From the NCBI RefSeq assembly GCF_000148385.1, contig NC_014537.1:480001-512000 (forward strand): a stretch of 32,000 nucleotides of DNA. Reading direction: 5' to 3'. Made by a program: the position numbers and the translations under genes. The notes beneath the pieces are model-generated. The model worked only from the letters and a program-made list of their open reading frames with translations, was not told where the DNA came from and ran no database searches. The DNA is from Vulcanisaeta distributa DSM 14429. GTDB lineage: Archaea > Thermoproteota > Thermoprotei > Thermoproteales > Thermocladiaceae. Below are positions 10,100 to 17,414 of the stretch, piece by piece. Within the stretch, counting starts at the first letter, position 1, and each line of letters begins with the position of its first letter.

Positions 10100-11686
10100 A
10101 TGATGGAGCATAGCTCTTCCAATTATGTTAATGATATTGAAATGATAATACATGATTATAACGATAAAACACTGGATATTCAGGAATTACATAATTTATT
10201 ATCTGCATTAAGGCAATTAATAACTAATAATTGGGATTATATTAAGAATATATATGCAAGAGATTCCGTGAGAAATTCTAAACTCGGTTCTTTAATGTAC
10301 CCTACAGATATTCACCTTAAAGTTGGAATAGCTTCTGATTCCAATACGTTGATAAATAATGATAAAGCTATACCATTATTAAGCGGCTTTTTCATTAGTG
10401 ATGCTACGTTGATACGTGATAAAAATAAAGTTACTGCATTAGCAATAAATACTCCAGACCCTAGTCTCGCGACATCGTTTATCTTCACATTACTAAGTTA
10501 CTCCGGTAAGAATTACGTAAAGGATTATATATCGGTGATCTTAATAGAAGGTAAGAATAAAAAATCAGTTTCATTTAAACATATAATCAGTGATAATGCG
10601 AAATTTTTAGAAAAATTTTCAATATATCTCGTTACCAAAGATGATATTTACCAACTTATAGATATAAATCATAACCTTATTACCAGTGAGCTAAAGGATT
10701 GGCTTAAGTGGACCCTTAATAATTGGGATAATCCTCACTATTATATAATCCTCAGAAAACAATTAAAGTTTGTTAAGTATTCAATAAATGGATTATTAAC
10801 TAGGGACTCGATATTCACTTGGTACCTTGGTGATGGTGTTAGAGGCCATTTTAACCGTGGGGCTTTCGATATAGGTTTATCATTTATAACTGATCCACTT
10901 ATTTTTAAATTCATGAATAGGTTTTTATGCACCTTATATAATTGCGACTCTAAGTTCTTTGGAGGACATGGTGCGCGAAATAGCGAACATTATATTGTAT
11001 GTCCTGTTAAAGCTGAGGTTATTAAGGACATTGTGGAGTGGGCAGGGAAATGGCCTAAGTATGGCTTAACGCAGAGAGTTCTTGATCTGCTTGAAGCCAT
11101 TAAATACGGTAAACTATGCGAAGGCTATCGTAAGTGGCCTACTATTGACATTGATGGATTTGAGCTGATTATTCGTAAACATAATATGGGAAATAGATGG
11201 TATTTAACTAAGAGTGCCGCAAGTAAAGAGTATTTAGACGCAATAGCAGCACTACTAAAGCAAAAGTTCGAGATAAATGCCAATATTCGAGAAAATAAAT
11301 GGGGCTACGAATTATACGTGTCCATTGAGGATACTAGGCGTATTCTGAGGATGCTTGGTGTTTATGAGAGGTTTTATGGCGAGCCGAGGAGATTGCCGAG
11401 TGTTGATGATGTGATTGGCGTGCTTAGGCGGTATGGTATTAGGAGGTGGCATGTGCATGAGGCGAGGGCTCGTAATGGTAATGGTTATGAGTATACCGAG
11501 GCCTGCGTATTGATCTCCCTGGGTGATTCCGGGGAGGCTATGAGGCTTAGGGATGAGCTTGTTGGGCTTGGTGTTAGGGTTCGTAAGGTTGTGTGGGGCA
11601 CGGTCATTGTCTGCAGGACTGAGGATAGGCTGCTTTTAACGAAGGCCTTAAGTACCATGGGCCTAGGTGGTGTGGATTCCACCTAA
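10100..11686 (+). CDS. Hypothetical 528-aa protein with two LAGLIDADG-like motifs; compositional chimera
   Basis: The ORF is long and uninterrupted. Residues 92-135 (PLLSGFFISDATLIRDKNKVTALAINTPDPSLATSFIFTLLSYSG) and 238-281 (IFTWYLGDGVRGHFNRGAFDIGLSFITDPLIFKFMNRFLCTLYN) follow the helix-strand-strand-helix pattern of LAGLIDADG domains. The functional call is tentative. Confidence 0.6.
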   Translation: MMEHSSSNYVNDIEMIIHDYNDKTLDIQELHNLLSALRQLITNNWDYIKNIYARDSVRNSKLGSLMYPTDIHLKVGIASDSNTLINNDKAIPLLSGFFISDATLIRDKNKVTALAINTPDPSLATSFIFTLLSYSGKNYVKDYISVILIEGKNKKSVSFKHIISDNAKFLEKFSIYLVTKDDIYQLIDINHNLITSELKDWLKWTLNNWDNPHYYIILRKQLKFVKYSINGLLTRDSIFTWYLGDGVRGHFNRGAFDIGLSFITDPLIFKFMNRFLCTLYNCDSKFFGGHGARNSEHYIVCPVKAEVIKDIVEWAGKWPKYGLTQRVLDLLEAIKYGKLCEGYRKWPTIDIDGFELIIRKHNMGNRWYLTKSAASKEYLDAIAALLKQKFEINANIRENKWGYELYVSIEDTRRILRMLGVYERFYGEPRRLPSVDDVIGVLRRYGIRRWHVHEARARNGNGYEYTEACVLISLGDSGEAMRLRDELVGLGVRVRKVVWGTVIVCRTEDRLLLTKALSTMGLGGVDST

Positions 11687-11691
11687 GCCGC

Positions 11692-12060
11692 CTAGTATAG
11701 GAGTAATGTCCTCTCCCTTAAGCGGCCGGTCACTGGGTCGACCTCGAGCTCGAGGACCTCAAGGGTGGTTACGCCGATTAGGACCTTATCGATTACGTCG
11801 GAAACAAGCACTGGGACGACCTCACCCCTTCCCTCAACCTCAACCCAGGCCCTAGACCTATCAACCTTAATAACCCCAGCCCCAGTCTCAACCCTAGACT
11901 TGCCGGTAATCACCAGGCCAAGCTCATTGGCCAGTGAGCGTGGTATCACGGTTAAGGTTGCGCCCGTGTCTACCAGGGCCTTAACCTCAATAACCCTACT
12001 CAAGTCAACGCTACCAATCCTGGCGTTAACCCAAACGTGCCTCATCAATGAGTAATGCAT
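11692..12060 (-). CDS. Retropepsin-like (clan AA) aspartic protease
   Basis: 122 aa with the catalytic ALVDTGATLTVIP (DTGA) motif. Size is typical of single-domain archaeal/bacterial retropepsin-like proteins that act as dimers. The ATG at 12045 is an alternative start. Confidence 0.75.
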   Translation of the reverse strand: MHYSLMRHVWVNARIGSVDLSRVIEVKALVDTGATLTVIPRSLANELGLVITGKSRVETGAGVIKVDRSRAWVEVEGRGEVVPVLVSDVIDKVLIGVTTLEVLELEVDPVTGRLRERTLLLY

Positions 12061-12099: not shown

Positions 12100-12516
12100 G
12101 TGGCTGTGGATAGGTTGAGTGAGGCTGAGAGGTGGCTTAGGCAGTCCCTCAGGGACTTGGACGCCGCTAGGGGTAGCTTGGCTGGTGGTTACTATGAGTG
12201 GGCATGCTTCCAGGCCCAGCAGGCTGCTGAAAAGGCCGTTAAGGCCCTGCTTCACGGGCTTGGCGTAGGCGCGTGGGGGCATAGTATAGTTGAGCTCCTT
12301 GACATGCTTAGGGATAGGTACAATATCGAGGGATTGATGCCATTGGCTAGGGAGTTGGATAGGCACTACATACCCGCAAGGTACCCAAACTCCTTCGAAA
12401 GTGGATACCCCGCGATGTATTATGATAATGAAGTTGCGGAAAGGGCTATTAAGGCTGCCGAGGCAATCATAACGTGGGTGAGGGAGAGACTAAGAGAGCT
12501 TGGCTTAGCGACTTAA
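12100..12516 (+). CDS. HEPN-domain protein, classical PF05168-type
   Basis: 138 aa. Contains EAERWLRQSLRDLDAA, WACFQAQQAAEKAVKALL, and RELDRHYIPARYPN, which includes an Rx4H motif. It is paired with a downstream minimal NTase. Confidence 0.85.
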   Translation: MAVDRLSEAERWLRQSLRDLDAARGSLAGGYYEWACFQAQQAAEKAVKALLHGLGVGAWGHSIVELLDMLRDRYNIEGLMPLARELDRHYIPARYPNSFESGYPAMYYDNEVAERAIKAAEAIITWVRERLRELGLAT

Positions 12517-12884
12517 GGAAATACGTCAGCGACATATCATCCGCAATACCAGTTGAGGCTATTATACTGTACGGCTCAGCGGCGAGGAATCTAAACGGGT
12601 CCTGGAGCGACATTGATGTCCTAGTGATCAGCGACGCCTTCAGGGGCATTCCCATACCGGACAGAATCAGTCTTCTCCTCAGGTTCAAGAGGGGGCGTAT
12701 TGAGGCATTGGGCTACACATTTGATGAATTGGTCAGGATGGTTAATGCCATGAACCCACTGGCATTAAATGCATTAATCGAGGGTAGAATTATCGTGGGT
12801 AGTGACAGGGTTAGGAAACTGGCCGAGGAGACTAGGAAACGCTTCATAAGGAGAGGTAGGGCGTGGTTCATGATACCAGGTTAA
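12474..12884 (+). CDS. Minimal nucleotidyltransferase, partner of the upstream HEPN protein
   Basis: 136 aa with the signature ILYGSAARNLNGSWSDIDVLVIS. The ORF overlaps the HEPN gene's 3' end by 43 nt if GTG 12474 is the start. Confidence 0.85.
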   Translation: MGEGETKRAWLSDLRKYVSDISSAIPVEAIILYGSAARNLNGSWSDIDVLVISDAFRGIPIPDRISLLLRFKRGRIEALGYTFDELVRMVNAMNPLALNALIEGRIIVGSDRVRKLAEETRKRFIRRGRAWFMIPG

Positions 12885-12999: not shown

Positions 13000-13992
13000 T
13001 TAACCGCAGATAGACAGCCAACCGGAGCTTGATGGTGAGTTGAGTATTGCCGTGCCCGATGTAACGTAGTAAATACCCGCTGGGTATAGGTCCCAGGTAA
13101 CTGATCCAGTCGCAACCTGCCCATAGATGCCATAACCATTCTCATTAATGCCGAAGTAGAAACCCGTTGACTCCTTAACCTGGACAAACGAGACCGGTGG
13201 TGAGAATGGGATTTGTGGTGCCGCTAAGTTGCCCCGGCCACTCCATACTTGTCCGCCAATGGTTATTTTGTTGTAGAAGGTGTACCCAGGTATGCCGCCG
13301 ACGTTTATCCAGCCCGTGGCCCAGTAAATATTTAATACGCAGTCAGTCTCATACTGAACATACTGATCAGACTTAGCTAGTATTAAACCAAGCATGTCCT
13401 TAAGAATCCACTTAATAGCGGCAGTCTCAATTATGTTATCACCGTATTCACTGGGCTTCGCTAGTAGTACGTTTATGGCGTAGGGCACGTACTTGAGGAG
13501 ACTTGGATCCGTTTTATTTAACTCCTGCAATACCTGATTATCGAGTAGGTACGTGAGTTCTAGGGATGAGCCATTTATGACGGTGTAATTGTAGAAGTAG
13601 TACGTTAGTGTTACGTTAACGCCCCTTACCCTAACCCAACCCCTGAATGCGTTCGGTATGATCAGGACGATGGCCTTGGACCCACTGAGCTTGATAAATG
13701 CCTGAGGCATCACCCTGTATAGGCTCATGAACCCGTTAACACTCGTTATATTGAATACGTACTGAGACCCATTCGGTAGCATCAATACGGCTAAGCCGCC
13801 ATTGACAAATTGTAGCACTGGATTAACCACGGTGGTACCGTTGGGATACTTAGTGACGGGAAAGATTAGCTTAACCGTGAGGTAGGCAGGCTCGTAGTAC
13901 AATGGGAGTAAGTACGTGAGTAATACGGCGGCGAATAGGGCAGCCACGCTAAGGATGATTATGAGTCCCCTCTTATTCATTGTTCGGTTCAC
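13000..13992 (-). CDS. Predicted secreted/surface protein with class-III-like signal peptide
   Basis: 330-aa ORF. The likely true start is ATG 13980 (MNKRG|LIIILSVAALFAAVLL), because a TATA-like box lies about 25 nt upstream of it. The protein has many N-x-S/T sequons and an aromatic/Gly-rich C-terminal part. No family was recognised. Confidence 0.7.
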   Translation of the reverse strand: MNRTMNKRGLIIILSVAALFAAVLLTYLLPLYYEPAYLTVKLIFPVTKYPNGTTVVNPVLQFVNGGLAVLMLPNGSQYVFNITSVNGFMSLYRVMPQAFIKLSGSKAIVLIIPNAFRGWVRVRGVNVTLTYYFYNYTVINGSSLELTYLLDNQVLQELNKTDPSLLKYVPYAINVLLAKPSEYGDNIIETAAIKWILKDMLGLILAKSDQYVQYETDCVLNIYWATGWINVGGIPGYTFYNKITIGGQVWSGRGNLAAPQIPFSPPVSFVQVKESTGFYFGINENGYGIYGQVATGSVTWDLYPAGIYYVTSGTAILNSPSSSGWLSICG

Positions 13993-13998
13993 TAAGTT

Positions 13999-14010
13999 AC
14001 CTTATCTTAA
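13999..14010 (-). promoter_or_regulatory. TATA-like box (TTAAGATAAG on the minus strand) about 25 nt upstream of ATG 13980
   Basis: The plus-strand sequence CTTATCTTAA at 14001-14010 gives this box. The spacing argues for ATG 13980 rather than GTG 13992 as the start. Confidence 0.4.
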
Positions 14011-14370
14011 TCCTAACTAATATGTATATCGCTGGTATTATTTTGAAAAATTCCTGGACAAGGTTAATGAGGCATTTTAGGCATTGAGCGGTGGTGATTG
14101 GCGCATCCTAGGCTGAGGGGGTGATGAGCTGGGGTTAGATGATTATTAAGGATTGTTAATTAATCACCGTCGGCCCGGTTTACATCACCGGTTCAGTGGG
14201 GACGGGAGAAGCTCATCCAATTACTTACTCACCAGCACTTCCCTTATCAACCTTTCCCAATCCTAGTCCTGGTTAGATTCCCTTATTTTGTACCCAGTGG
14301 TTCCCACGTATAGCAATACTACGTGAGCTATACACAATAGTGATGTGGATATCCCTGAATCTAAAGTTTA

Positions 14371-14751
14371 GTGTTGACATGCCTCAGAATTACACCCGTT
14401 TGTTATATGGGCTTGGTTTGCCTGGATCCTCATTATTCCTATTGCTTTTCGGTTATCGGCTTCGCCCTAATAACCAAGTTCCTCAGGGATGATGATGCGG
14501 AGTTTGGGCTTAATTTTAGGAGGGTTCTTCTTCAGTCCCTGGTCTACCTAGCCCTATGCCTTGTCATGCCCGTCGGCGAGCTCGGCTTTATATATGACGT
14601 CACAGGCTTCCCACTGCGCTTAAGTACTTCAGCACCCACGTCTAATGATTCAGCCGTCCTTTACACGGCTACCCACGTCCCAGTAATAATCATCACTTTA
14701 ATACCCATCTACGCCTTTGCCGCAACCAGGGGCGTATATGCCGTGCCCTAA
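14371..14751 (+). CDS. Doubtful ORF, possibly a small membrane protein
   Basis: This is the only long ORF (126 codons) in the roughly 800-bp gap 13993-14792. It has three hydrophobic stretches but no recognisable motif. 48 of 126 codons end in C, against 15 of the first 60 codons of the adjacent ATPase gene. It could be a chance ORF or an antisense-shadow ORF. Confidence 0.3.
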   Translation: MLTCLRITPVCYMGLVCLDPHYSYCFSVIGFALITKFLRDDDAEFGLNFRRVLLQSLVYLALCLVMPVGELGFIYDVTGFPLRLSTSAPTSNDSAVLYTATHVPVIIITLIPIYAFAATRGVYAVP

Positions 14752-14754
14752 TTC

Positions 14755-14772
14755 CTCAAAAGGTATTTTAAC
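14755..14772 (+). promoter_or_regulatory. Purine-rich tract plus TATA-like box (AAAAGGTATTTTAAC) centred about 26 nt upstream of GTG 14793
   Basis: Box at 14762-14772 preceded by AAAAGG, which is BRE-like. It suggests the ATPase/Toprim-like/unknown operon has its own promoter and a leaderless first gene. Confidence 0.45.
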
Positions 14773-14792
14773 TACGTTGTTGTAATTACTCT

Positions 14793-16067
14793 GTGGTTGT
14801 TGTATTAAGGCGGTTGTCGCTTGAGGATTATGGCCCCTTTACTAAGCTTGATATCGAACTTGGCGATATCACGATATTCGTTGGTAGGAATAACACGGGC
14901 AAAAGCACGGCACTGGAAGCCATTACATTACTCCTCTCATCAATTAACAATTTTAGGGTAATAACATCCAGCATTGACGTGCTTTCGAACCTTGGGTTAA
15001 GGAGCAGGTACTTAATTAATTTGAGGAGTAATAAAGGTGTTGCGGTTGTTTCCGGCGATGTGGTTAGCCAGGGCATGAAGCATAGTATTGAGGTGAGGGT
15101 GATCAGGGGCATTAATGGGCTGGGTGATCTTCGTGATAACGCGGTACGAGAGATCATTAGATCAATTACTGAATTAACACCGACATCTCAGAAAATACTT
15201 ATTGAGGCATTTCGTCGAGTATTACGGGAACGTAAGGATGGTAAGGATATTACTGAGGCGTTTAAGGAGTTTGTTGATGGTGTGATTTCCGTACTTAGTA
15301 ATCGTGTAGATGATGTGTTAGTGAATGCCGTTTTCGTAAGTACGTATGTTGATGGTGAATTACTCAATGCTGCATTACTACCCTTAAGTGAAGTAAGGGT
15401 TAGTGAAGATATAATTGGTAAGTTAAAGGAACTAGGATTGAGTTCTTCTGAAGCCAGGAGATTATTAAATATTCAATTGGGGAAAGTTATTTCGGGAGGT
15501 CGGATTATTCTCACTAGTAAAAAGTTAAGTGTTGAACCAATACGTGTTCAGCACTTGTCGTTACACCCATTTTTAATAGATGATTTACCCCCTGATAAGC
15601 AGACGGAATTGATTGACCTATTGAGGAAGGAGGTTCGTTATTTCTATGATTATAGGGGTGGGCAAGTTATTCTTAATTTTGATGGTAGTAGGGTCTCCGT
15701 ACCCTACGCCCTGATGGGTGATGGTTTTAAGGCCTTGGTTAGGATGCTCGGTCTTATTGTCATGGGCGTTGACGTTACCCTGATTGATGAACCAGAGGCT
15801 CATTTACACCCTGGCTTTATGGAGGTGATTACTAAGTACATGGTTGAGCCCAGGTTCCTTGATCGTATTCAGTTCGTGATGGCAACACAGTCACTTGAGT
15901 TCCTCGACTACCTGCTTAGAGCGGCTGAAAAAGGCGGTGTCCTTGGTAGGGTTAAGCTTGTTAGGCTCTACTTGATGCCTAATGGTAGTATTGATTATGA
16001 GCAGTTGAGTGGTGAGGAGGCGTATGAAGAGATGGATGAACTCAAGTCAGACCTCAGGGGTCCCTAG
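14793..16067 (+). CDS. ABC-type (AAA_21/AAA_15, OLD/AbiLi/AriA-like) ATPase
   Basis: 424 aa. N-terminus is LSLEDYGPFTKLDIELGDITIFVGRNNTGKSTALEAI (Walker A). An insert of about 270 aa follows. Then come MGDGFKALV (signature-like), VTLIDEPEAHLHP (Walker B plus the LHP typical of OLD-like ATPases) and FVMATQSLEFL (H-loop position, Gln instead of His). Confidence 0.85.
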   Translation: MVVVLRRLSLEDYGPFTKLDIELGDITIFVGRNNTGKSTALEAITLLLSSINNFRVITSSIDVLSNLGLRSRYLINLRSNKGVAVVSGDVVSQGMKHSIEVRVIRGINGLGDLRDNAVREIIRSITELTPTSQKILIEAFRRVLRERKDGKDITEAFKEFVDGVISVLSNRVDDVLVNAVFVSTYVDGELLNAALLPLSEVRVSEDIIGKLKELGLSSSEARRLLNIQLGKVISGGRIILTSKKLSVEPIRVQHLSLHPFLIDDLPPDKQTELIDLLRKEVRYFYDYRGGQVILNFDGSRVSVPYALMGDGFKALVRMLGLIVMGVDVTLIDEPEAHLHPGFMEVITKYMVEPRFLDRIQFVMATQSLEFLDYLLRAAEKGGVLGRVKLVRLYLMPNGSIDYEQLSGEEAYEEMDELKSDLRGP

Positions 16068-16686
16068 CCATGCTTTGATTATACTATGTGAGGGTAAGCA
16101 CGATTATGAATTTATTAAGGAATTGATCAGTAAGATAAACGTTAAGTGTGACGTTAAGGACCAGGATCCCAGGGATAAGGACTTCATTATTAGGCACATC
16201 GTGGACGGTAAACGGCTTTCTTACGTTCCTGTCATCATTGAGGGTGGTAAGGATAGGCTTGATGGTAATGTTAGGCTCCTAATTAGTAAGTTACGTTCCG
16301 TCCATGGGTCATCTACCTGGGTGTTGATTCTGCGTGATTCCGACTCCAATGATGCAGATAGTGCCTTCGATAAATTAAGGCGTAATATTGTCAGTCTCAT
16401 TAATAACCCCCTTAAGTTTTCGCTATATAAACCGAGCATGAATTGCGGGCAGGGAATCCGTGTGGGGTCCTTCGTATACTATGACTGTGTCTTGAGGTAT
16501 ATGGATGGTGATGTTTATTTTCGGTTTATTTTTGTGGTTCCGTCTCTGGAGGATTTTCTTCGTGATTATGGGTACGGTGATTCAAGACTTCACTCCGCCA
16601 TTGATAAAGCCCTTAATGATCCCAGGAATAACGATGTGGTAGATATCTTTAAGAGCTTACTTGGTTCATGCTTGTTTGATGAGTAG
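16009..16686 (+). CDS. Small Toprim-like protein (RloB/AbiLii-like or DUF4435/DUF4276-like), partner of the upstream ATPase
   Basis: LIILCEGKHDYEFIKEL resembles the RloB/Toprim N-terminal motif (CEGxxTE..YF) that carries the catalytic Glu. VLILRDSDSND is a DxD-type acidic cluster, and FVVPSLEDFL is a late conserved Glu. Start candidates are GTG 16009, ATG 16024, ATG 16036 and TTG 16075; the last is 8 nt after the ATPase stop. Confidence 0.6.
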   Translation: MVRRRMKRWMNSSQTSGVPSHALIILCEGKHDYEFIKELISKINVKCDVKDQDPRDKDFIIRHIVDGKRLSYVPVIIEGGKDRLDGNVRLLISKLRSVHGSSTWVLILRDSDSNDADSAFDKLRRNIVSLINNPLKFSLYKPSMNCGQGIRVGSFVYYDCVLRYMDGDVYFRFIFVVPSLEDFLRDYGYGDSRLHSAIDKALNDPRNNDVVDIFKSLLGSCLFDE

Positions 16687-17077
16687 TAGGGTTTTGGCTC
16701 ATGGTATTAGGGCCGTCTTCCCTGCGGGTTTTGATTCCGTTGCCAATGCAGTTAGGGATTATGATCCTGCGTCCAATGTTTACTTCACGGTTTTAAGTAC
16801 GAGTCCTAGGGTTGCCGTTGCGTTTGGGCAGAAGTTCTTCTTTAGGATTGGTCATTACCTATCCTGCATGACCCTTGTTATTGAGCGTGATTCCGAGACT
16901 GAGGTTAGGATTATTGCCCACTCCGGTCTTCAATTATCCGCCCTCTCTAACTATGGTGCTAATGTTGATTATGCCCGCGACGTGCTTGACCGCCTGAGTA
17001 AGTCCCTCGGTGTTGATCCTAGGGATGTGGTTGAGGTTGATTATATGGACGTCACTAAGTCTCAGCAATTAGGGTGA
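16661..17077 (+). CDS. Hypothetical protein, third gene of the ATPase/Toprim-like operon
   Basis: The ORF is 138 aa from TTG 16661. The likely start, ATG 16679, overlaps the upstream stop TAG 16684-16686 (ATGAGTAG), which indicates translational coupling. No family was recognised from the sequence. Confidence 0.6.
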   Translation: MVHACLMSSRVLAHGIRAVFPAGFDSVANAVRDYDPASNVYFTVLSTSPRVAVAFGQKFFFRIGHYLSCMTLVIERDSETEVRIIAHSGLQLSALSNYGANVDYARDVLDRLSKSLGVDPRDVVEVDYMDVTKSQQLG

Positions 17078-17163
17078 TGGGTCTTGCAGTCAAATTCTAG
17101 ACCTAGTAAATCATTGCTGTGTAATGAATAAATGTTTAAGTAGTTAGCTATGTCTTGGTTATT

Positions 17164-17414
17164 ATGATTGAGATTATTATTAAGGTTACTAGGGATTACC
17201 GGGTTACGATACCCGCGGGCATTAGGGGAGGCTCGGGATTAAGGTTGGTGATTTAATTAGGGTTGTCTATGACGAGGGTGAGGGTGTTGTTAAGCTTATC
17301 CCTGTTAGGAGGAGTAGGACTACGATTAGGTTAGGTAGGCCTATCACTGTTGAGGAGATTGAAGGGGCTATTGAGGATGTGATGGGGTTGGATCGCCGCT
17401 GCTTCATTCCTTAA
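17164..17414 (+). pseudogene. AbrB/SpoVT (MazE/VapB-like) swapped-hairpin DNA-binding protein gene, interrupted by a 1-nt frameshift
   Basis: Frame 1 from ATG 17164 gives MIEIIIKVTRDYRVTIPAGIRGGSGLRLVI*, with the stop at 17254. From 17229, in the next frame, the sequence reads RLGIKVGDLIRVVYDEGEGVVKLIPVRRSRTTIRLGRPITVEEIEGAIEDVMGLDRRCFIP*, with the stop at 17412-17414. Joined, these give a canonical AbrB motif (RVTIPAGIR-x-RLGIKVGDLIRV). The shift lies in ATTAGGGGAGGCTCGGG at about 17224-17231. Confidence 0.7.

Follow-up and report, generated by a model that had tools for sequence, protein, structure and literature searches.

Several described systems pair an ATPase with a separate Toprim-type protein. 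In PARIS, a split AAA_15/21 ATPase (AriA) stands beside a Toprim-type partner (AriB), and the PARIS paper counts MADS3-4, that is, an AAA ATPase (MAD3) with a DUF4276-like protein (MAD4), among the ATPase plus Toprim systems (PMC11464382). AbiL has a two-gene layout of this kind, and PADLOC lists a further two-gene type, PDC-M38, composed of an AAA_15/21 ATPase (A) and a DUF3226-like protein (B); the PDC entries of PADLOC are unvalidated candidates (PMC12988326). Literature searches for DUF3226 and PDC-M38 found no paper. A low prevalence of defence systems has been reported for hyperthermophilic Thermoproteota (PMC12988326). Here we describe three open reading frames (ORFs), genes 1 to 3, within positions 14793–17077 of a 32,000-nt stretch of Vulcanisaeta distributa DSM 14429 DNA (NC_014537.1, 480,001 to 512,000; hereafter the window, whose numbering is used throughout). 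An initial annotation of this DNA had read them as a three-gene operon, a candidate defence system with an extra component. In our analysis the more probable explanation is a two-gene ATPase/Toprim-like module of the OLD-like, PDC-M38 type (genes 1 and 2) that adjoins an unrelated, independent gene of the DUF6054 family (gene 3). The ORF coordinates, motifs, overlaps and TATA-like box of the initial annotation were all found where it had placed them. The ratio of nonsynonymous to synonymous substitution rates (dN/dS) was 0.12–0.37 across homologues of genes 1, 2 and 3; because homologues of all three show purifying selection, the ORFs are more than chance.

Gene 1 (14793–16067, forward strand; GTG start) encodes a 424-aa ABC-type ATPase that is 100% identical to the “ATP-binding protein” of V. 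distributa at NCBI, located on a 2.37-Mb contig. It contains Walker A (GRNNTGKST, aa 31–39), LIDEPEAHLHP (aa 330–340) and MATQS (aa 363–367), as well as a helical insert of approximately 250 aa. Both AAA_21 (2.1e-20; 74.5 bits, cut-off 27) and AAA_15 (2.8e-14; 54 bits, cut-off 32.1) were matched in Pfam, which is the ABC family required of the ATPase in OLD-like split modules. The best PADLOC models were generic AriA (1.2e-22), PDC-M38A (4.6e-19, aligned to the C-terminus) and AbiLi (1.7e-17), and the NsnB, PtuA, Old, GajA and mad3 models were also matched. Similarly, a profile built from ten homologues retrieved from PDB an “AAA family ATPase” (9n69, 9e-14), Thermus OLD (6p74, 7e-13), PtuA and AriA (7e-7), followed at lower rank by RecF (8e-6), GajA (2e-4) and Rad50 (4e-4). 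These matches place gene 1 among the AAA_21/AAA_15 ABC ATPases, in the clade of OLD, PtuA, AriA and AbiLi. Across 10 gene 1 homologues, no residue varied in Walker A, in the Walker B/D-loop DEPEAHLHP or in DLRGP at the C-terminus. The H-loop reads ATQS in Vulcanisaeta and Caldivirga versus ATHS in a Pyrobaculum relative and more distant relatives; the Gln noticed at this position by the initial annotation is real and clade-specific, and general knowledge of ABC ATPases suggests that it impairs or slows ATP hydrolysis.

DLRGP represents the last five residues of gene 1 (16053–16064) and, together with the preceding IDYE.L.GEEA motif, was invariant in the ten homologues down to 33% identity. Both are kept even in the Pyrobaculum relative, which has no adjoining gene 2, and this end may serve as a docking tail or have another conserved role. 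The Pyrobaculum gene, from a metagenome-assembled genome (MAG; L013/L014:5001-6107), is the nearest gene 1 relative beyond Vulcanisaeta and Caldivirga (36% identity, H-loop His). It stands alone, without an adjoining Toprim-like partner, and its neighbours are genes for a DUF499 protein and a large methyltransferase-like protein (a BREX/DISARM-like neighbourhood) and PD-(D/E)XK genes.

Gene 2 (16024–16686, forward strand) encodes a Toprim-like protein of 220 aa, a putative nuclease effector. The motifs LIILCEGKHDYEF, DSDSND and PSLEDFL are all present, and E23, E73-G-G, R104-D-x-D107 and E176 were invariant among orthologues. Sequence searches found close relatives only in Vulcanisaeta and Caldivirga. 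Pfam DUF3226 was matched by gene 2 and five orthologues (best 3e-4, 21 bits), but all six fell short of its 27-bit gathering cut-off, which makes gene 2 a remote DUF3226 relative and not a curated member. Up to seven PADLOC PDC-M38B models were matched (gene 2, 2e-5; best orthologue, 2.3e-7; six of six orthologues). Weaker matches to mad4 (6e-3), two retron RT-Toprim models (0.01) and the Toprim region of NCBIfam retron_Ec67_fus (2.6e-3) all spanned the N-terminal 100 residues. In the AlphaFold2 (AF2) model (mean confidence, pLDDT, 75), the Glu and the DSD residues lie at strand ends; the top Foldseek match in PDB was weak (PH0156, 2p62; E 2e-3, TMq 0.38). Neither a PDB sequence search with gene 2 nor a comparison of its alignment profile with PDB gave a meaningful match. 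Taken together, these data indicate that gene 2 is a divergent DUF3226 protein with conserved acidic motifs of the Toprim type, and by analogy it would be a nuclease.

The split OLD-like ATPase and Toprim-like pair proposed by the initial annotation is consistent with the AAA_21 match, the DUF3226 and PDC-M38B matches and the invariant acidic residues. Its suggested kinship with AbiL, PARIS and OLD held for the ATPase, which matches AriA, AbiLi and OLD, but not for the partner: no profile match was found to RloB (PF13707), AbiLii, DUF4435 or AriB at E≤1, either with gene 2 or with its orthologues, and the perceived likeness of the gene 2 motif to that of RloB lacked a supporting profile match.

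In Vulcanisaeta sp. JCM 14467 (L006/L007/L008), gene 2 (L006:5326-5995) is frameshifted at approximately residue 173, and genes 1 and 3 are intact. An NCBI assembly shows the frameshift, two independent Logan assemblies of read sets have it too, and this copy may be a genuine pseudogene. Frameshifts in the JCM drafts, where genes 1 and 3 are frameshifted too, were not used as evidence for pseudogenes, as this suggests sequencing error.

Gene 3 (16679–17077, forward strand; ATG start) encodes a 132-aa alpha/beta protein, and its ATG overlaps the gene 2 stop by 8 nt (ATGAGTAG). The initial annotation saw in it a tightly coupled third component and hence a new architecture. In such a three-component system, gene 3 would be an obligate, translationally coupled third subunit (a sensor, regulator or immunity protein), for which the 8-nt overlap speaks, as does the gene order 1-2-3, kept in the window, L006, L010, L015, L016 and L019 despite 20–30% nucleotide divergence. 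However, the triad was found only in Vulcanisaeta and always at one orthologous locus beside GINS-MCM (window, L006, L015, L016 and L019; the L010 contig is too short to show flanks), a pattern that points to vertical inheritance within one genus. Moreover, the pair and gene 3 each occur without the other. In V. souniana (L009), homology to the window extends over 13001–16697 and then breaks, so that this species retains both members of the pair but no more than the initial ∼20 nt of gene 3; in Caldivirga (L012), the ORF that comes after the pair is an unrelated coiled-coil one and not a gene 3 homologue. Conversely, gene 3 without the pair was observed in L001–L005, L018 and L020–L025. For example, V. 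distributa JCM 11217 (L018) lacks the pair at this locus but still has gene 3, with 53 nt upstream of it, beside GINS-MCM, and gene 3 is intact in L024/L025 despite a deletion of ∼14226–16207. S. islandicus Y.G.57.14 and three metagenome contigs (L002–L004) have gene 3 alone, and four more distant relatives are also solitary, with neighbours that include ABC-2/TauE membrane protein genes, succinyl-CoA ligase, HEPN/MNT or M32 peptidase; three of the distant relatives adjoin housekeeping genes.

The S. islandicus copy showed 79% nucleotide identity to the window over exactly 16675–17086 and a guanine-plus-cytosine (GC) content of 0.44 versus 0.35 for its background. The pattern suggests that this gene alone moved recently between orders, out of a Vulcanisaeta-like donor. 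Orphan copies remain under purifying selection, with dN/dS of 0.13–0.21 (S. islandicus 0.13, L024 0.21) versus 0.12–0.23 for triad copies. In addition, the 3′-terminal part of gene 2 contains a TATA-like box, TCTTTAAGA (16646–16654, forward strand), ∼29 nt ahead of the gene 3 start codon, and this box is a candidate gene 3 promoter. A box at this distance was present in every locus, including the pair-deleted L018; in L015, where a 45-nt spacer separates genes 2 and 3, it is intergenic, and A/T boxes were also found in non-homologous upstream regions of gene 3 (S. islandicus L001, L011 and L021). Loss of either partner is tolerated; the pair therefore does not have in gene 3 an antitoxin or an obligate subunit. 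We conclude from these comparisons of gene order and sequence that gene 3 is a neighbour independent of the ATPase/Toprim module and no part of it. The three genes are not conserved as a set across other genomes, and we regard a three-component system as very unlikely.

The S. islandicus gene (L001:6106-6504, YG5714_0418) adjoins an IS110-type transposase fragment, an HTH_23 gene and an NTP_transf_2 gene. It is annotated as 167 aa, and its 35-aa N-terminal extension is probably a miscalled start.

A profile search of 1.8 billion proteins with gene 3 retrieved 48 representatives at E≤1e-3, nearly all of ∼130 aa. The window protein had no direct match in Pfam, PADLOC or NCBIfam, DUF6054 included; among 25 aligned members of its family, however, 19 matched DUF6054 (PF19524). 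The link is transitive and runs through P0018 (43% identical to gene 3; 1.3e-33 with the gene 3 profile) and P0020 (9e-30), which score 30.7 and 29.1 bits, respectively, above the DUF6054 cut-off of 27. By this route, gene 3 probably belongs to a divergent DUF6054 branch. A literature search for DUF6054 found no paper, and neither a function nor a solved structure is known for the family. The family alignment showed no invariant polar residues, with F18, G50, T74 and Y98 nearly invariant. The AF2 model (pLDDT 82) has a six-stranded sheet and three helices, and matched nothing at E≤1e-3 in PDB or BFVD fold searches; the alignment profile had no meaningful match in PDB. Because invariant polar residues and a significant fold match are both absent, the model and alignment point to a binding or structural protein, possibly an adaptor, and not an enzyme. 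Several other assignments of gene 3 were discarded. Similarity to START/SRPBCC-like and DUF1795/EagT6-like folds was too weak (TMq ≤0.51), and a Kelch repeat reading came from a spurious multi-repeat match to designed Kelch proteins at ∼5 bits per stretch. A virus- or plasmid-borne anti-defence gene was not indicated, as gene 3 had no matches among INPHARED phages, PLSDB plasmids or IMG/VR. Broad gene 3 alignments were too unconserved for a scan for related loci, and a narrower alignment retrieved Vulcanisaeta genomes only.

Genes 1 and 2, on the other hand, are kept together with a 41–44-nt overlap in both Vulcanisaeta and Caldivirga (Caldivirga versus window identity, 52% for gene 1 and 49% for gene 2). 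The gene 2 frame is open over 16009–16686 (stop TAG 16684–16686) and offers alternative starts at GTG 16009, ATG 16036 and TTG 16075. ATG 16024 is most likely the true start, with a 44-nt overlap with gene 1, and a Shine-Dalgarno (SD)-like sequence, GGTGAGGAGG (16011–16020, forward strand), lies just 5′ of it within the gene 1 coding sequence. This arrangement recurs in five loci, namely V. souniana, two other Vulcanisaeta lineages, a metagenome contig and Caldivirga, although conservation of GGTGAGGAGG is weak and non-independent evidence for SD function because the gene 1 codons for SGEEAYE constrain the same bases. Approximately 26 nt 5′ of GTG 14793, a TATA-like box, GTATTTTAAC (14763–14772, forward strand), can be read as a candidate promoter. 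An A/T box at this distance from the gene 1 start was also seen in eight related loci, including those of Caldivirga and Pyrobaculum (L009, L015, L016, L019, L006, L012 and L013 among them), and its position implies that the predicted transcript is leaderless or near-leaderless. A scan for sigma-70 promoters and terminators was set aside as not applicable to archaea; it returned fewer sites than shuffled controls.

The distribution of the pair is patchy. By blastn and tblastn, the segment 14255–16625, which comprises gene 1, gene 2 minus its last 60 nt and an upstream ORF remnant (ORF0, below), is absent from the syntenic locus of JCM 11217, and a second lineage (metagenome contigs L024/L025) lacks ∼14226–16207, such that gene 1 is gone together with the N-terminus of gene 2, its putative catalytic part. 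The breakpoints differ, and by this comparison the pair was deleted twice independently in Vulcanisaeta. Furthermore, V. souniana and Caldivirga have the pair elsewhere in the genome, and its GC content is 0.42–0.43 versus 0.48–0.52 for the flanks. Together with the toxin-antitoxin (TA) neighbours described below, the patchy presence, repeated loss, differing location and lower GC support a defence or selfish-element nature of the pair.

These features do not separate an antiviral module from a selfish, toxin-antitoxin-like addiction module, in which a Toprim toxin restrained by the ATPase would persist by post-segregational killing and horizontal spread and have no dedicated antiviral role. 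Patchy presence with repeated loss, HEPN/MNT and VapBC neighbours and the low GC would all be expected of it, and PDB labels its AriA entries “AriA antitoxin”. However, the clean joint deletions and the purifying selection on both genes fit either model, the ATPase plus Toprim relatives tested so far defend by abortive infection (PMC11464382), and addiction and an antiviral role are not mutually exclusive. We consider a purely selfish module unlikely.

Proximity to GINS and MCM raises a further alternative, that is, a housekeeping DNA-repair pair of the RecF/RecR or Rad50 type for which this location is meaningful. RecR is reportedly a Toprim protein, and gene 1 has weak N-terminal matches to RecF (3.7e-5; 8e-6 versus PDB) and Rad50. 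Nonetheless, these matches lie mostly over the P-loop region, with ranks well below those to defence ATPases; that to the RecF model TIGR00611 scored 23 bits against a cut-off of 172 and covered the N-terminal 45 residues only. A repair function also fits poorly with the absence of the pair from the syntenic locus in two lineages of Vulcanisaeta, with its different locus in V. souniana and Caldivirga, and with the confinement of gene 1 and gene 2 homologues to a handful of Thermoproteales lineages in a search of 5.8 billion proteins. This alternative appears highly improbable.

We return to the two-gene module with an independent DUF6054 neighbour, against which several observations also weigh. 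In at least six lineages of Vulcanisaeta, gene 3 stands next to the pair, and in three loci (the window, L006 and L010) it also overlaps gene 2, which leaves room for an accessory role confined to this genus. The Pfam score of gene 2 (21 bits) is below the DUF3226 cut-off (27 bits), and no experiment ties PDC-M38 or DUF3226 proteins to defence, the PDC types themselves being unvalidated (PMC12988326). The absence of the pair from JCM 11217 was established for the syntenic locus, and frameshifts in some draft assemblies, possibly sequencing errors, make calls of gene integrity uncertain. A bolder variant is that a DUF3226-type Toprim partner and an H-loop-Gln ATPase constitute a distinct, archaea-centred class of OLD-like immunity, working as a hydrolysis-poor nucleotide switch, with the DUF6054 neighbour recruited in Vulcanisaeta as a modulator (e.g. 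a trigger mimic or nuclease buffer). Such recruitment would account for the persistence of adjacency and overlap among lineages 20–30% apart at the nucleotide level, yet we judge this variant quite unlikely.

If the two-gene module functions as its relatives do, the following sequence of events can be envisaged. Gene 2 would be translated in a coupled manner with gene 1, and an oligomer of the gene 1 ATPase would hold the Toprim protein inactive while acting as a sensor, by analogy with PARIS (PMC11464382). A virus-derived trigger together with ATP binding would then release or activate the Toprim nuclease, which would cut tRNA or DNA and thereby abort the infection. With Gln in the H-loop, hydrolysis may be slow, and the ATPase would behave as a nucleotide-dependent switch and not as a motor. 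Gene 3 would be transcribed from its own promoter within the 3′ end of gene 2, and its function would not depend on the pair. This scheme starts from the family assignments, motifs, gene order, presence and absence, and selection reported above; nuclease activity, antiviral role, trigger and promoter use are what it predicts.

The initial annotation had also described the region as rich in TA and defence-type genes, and this description is borne out by an HEPN/MNT pair, a decayed MazE-like gene and a variable region. The HEPN/MNT genes (12100–12884) overlap each other (HEPN, 2.9e-34), and their architecture corresponds to PDC-M05, which is enriched in Archaea according to a 2026 survey (PMC12988326). 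An AbrB/MazE-type antitoxin gene at ∼17155–17385 begins with MVIMIEIIIKVTRDYRVTIPAGIRG... and is then frameshifted. TA or defence-type neighbours were also found for related genes: VapBC in JCM 14467, TnpB in Caldivirga, and DUF499 with a methyltransferase for the Pyrobaculum relative. At the position in JCM 14467 equivalent to the decayed gene (L006:6456-7086), an intact MazE-like gene is accompanied by a PIN (VapC) gene, which is missing from the window. HEPN/MNT pairs also adjoin gene 3 relatives in L021, and an NTP_transf_2 gene lies near the S. islandicus copy.

Directly 5′ of gene 1 is ORF0 (14379–14751, forward strand), detected by tblastn in three frames as the frameshifted remnant of a gene for a multi-pass membrane protein of 157–159 aa. 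The remnant region spans 14340–14751; its start, “MPQNYTRLLYGLG”, is at 14379 in one frame, and the remainder is in the frame of ORF 14371–14751. V. souniana (L009:4249-4728) and a Vulcanisaeta MAG (L015:4435-4908) have an intact copy just 5′ of gene 1; the gene is included in the JCM 11217 deletion and is absent from Caldivirga. A left homology break at ∼14225–14254 is common to L016, L018, L019, L024 and L025, whatever sequence comes next, and judging from these alignments is a hot spot of recombination or variation. No tRNA, Rfam RNA or convincing flanking repeat was found at the deleted segment or its left boundary, and a 17-nt imperfect repeat at 16165 and 16618, considered as an element boundary, is probably due to chance. 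The variable region left of the pair also contains a gene for a 122-aa retropepsin-like aspartyl protease (11692–12060, reverse strand; Asp_protease_2, 2.3e-10), which adjoins a gene for a 528-aa protein (10100–11686) with a weak LAGLIDADG_3 match.

In practical terms, the chief outcome is a negative one: the apparent three-gene operon should not be read as a new architecture; start/stop overlap in compact crenarchaeal genomes is weak evidence of functional coupling. If the pair does work as a defence, it would join a small number of ATPase/Toprim systems in hyperthermophilic Thermoproteota. It would also provide a tractable archaeal example for the uncharacterised PDC-M38/DUF3226 candidates, with natural variants that are intact, pair-deleted or neighbour-deleted.

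Comparison with the described systems shows both shared and distinguishing features. MAD3 of MADS aligns end-to-end with gene 1 (mad3, 2.4e-10) and the mad4 match of gene 2 is weak (6e-3), but no methyltransferase or other MADS gene lies nearby, and gene 1 scored 28 bits with NCBIfam MAD3 against a 420-bit cut-off. AbiL resembles the pair in its ATPase plus Toprim-like layout, in the AbiLi match of gene 1 (1.7e-17) and in the CEGxxD/E motif, which recalls that of RloB, although neither gene 2 nor its orthologues match RloB or AbiLii at E≤1, so that the partner is not that of AbiL. PARIS likewise has a split AAA_15/21 ATPase and a separate Toprim-type partner, and AriA is the best PADLOC model for gene 1; however, gene 2 matches neither DUF4435 nor AriB at E≤1, so that the partner is not that of PARIS, and it is shorter than AriB (220 versus ∼300 aa). 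In contrast, both PDC-M38 components were matched, at the level of component models, by the adjacent genes (A, 4.6e-19; B, 2e-5), whose two-gene order equals that of PDC-M38. The B matches are weak, suggesting that genes 1 and 2 represent a divergent archaeal branch, in which Gln replaces the H-loop His. On the basis of these profiles, the pair is closest to PADLOC PDC-M38, within a wider OLD-like group that comprises PARIS, AbiL, MADS3-4, Gabija and OLD. It thus belongs to a candidate type already catalogued by bioinformatics, to which it adds modest new points: an archaeal member, the H-loop Gln and a DUF3226-type partner.

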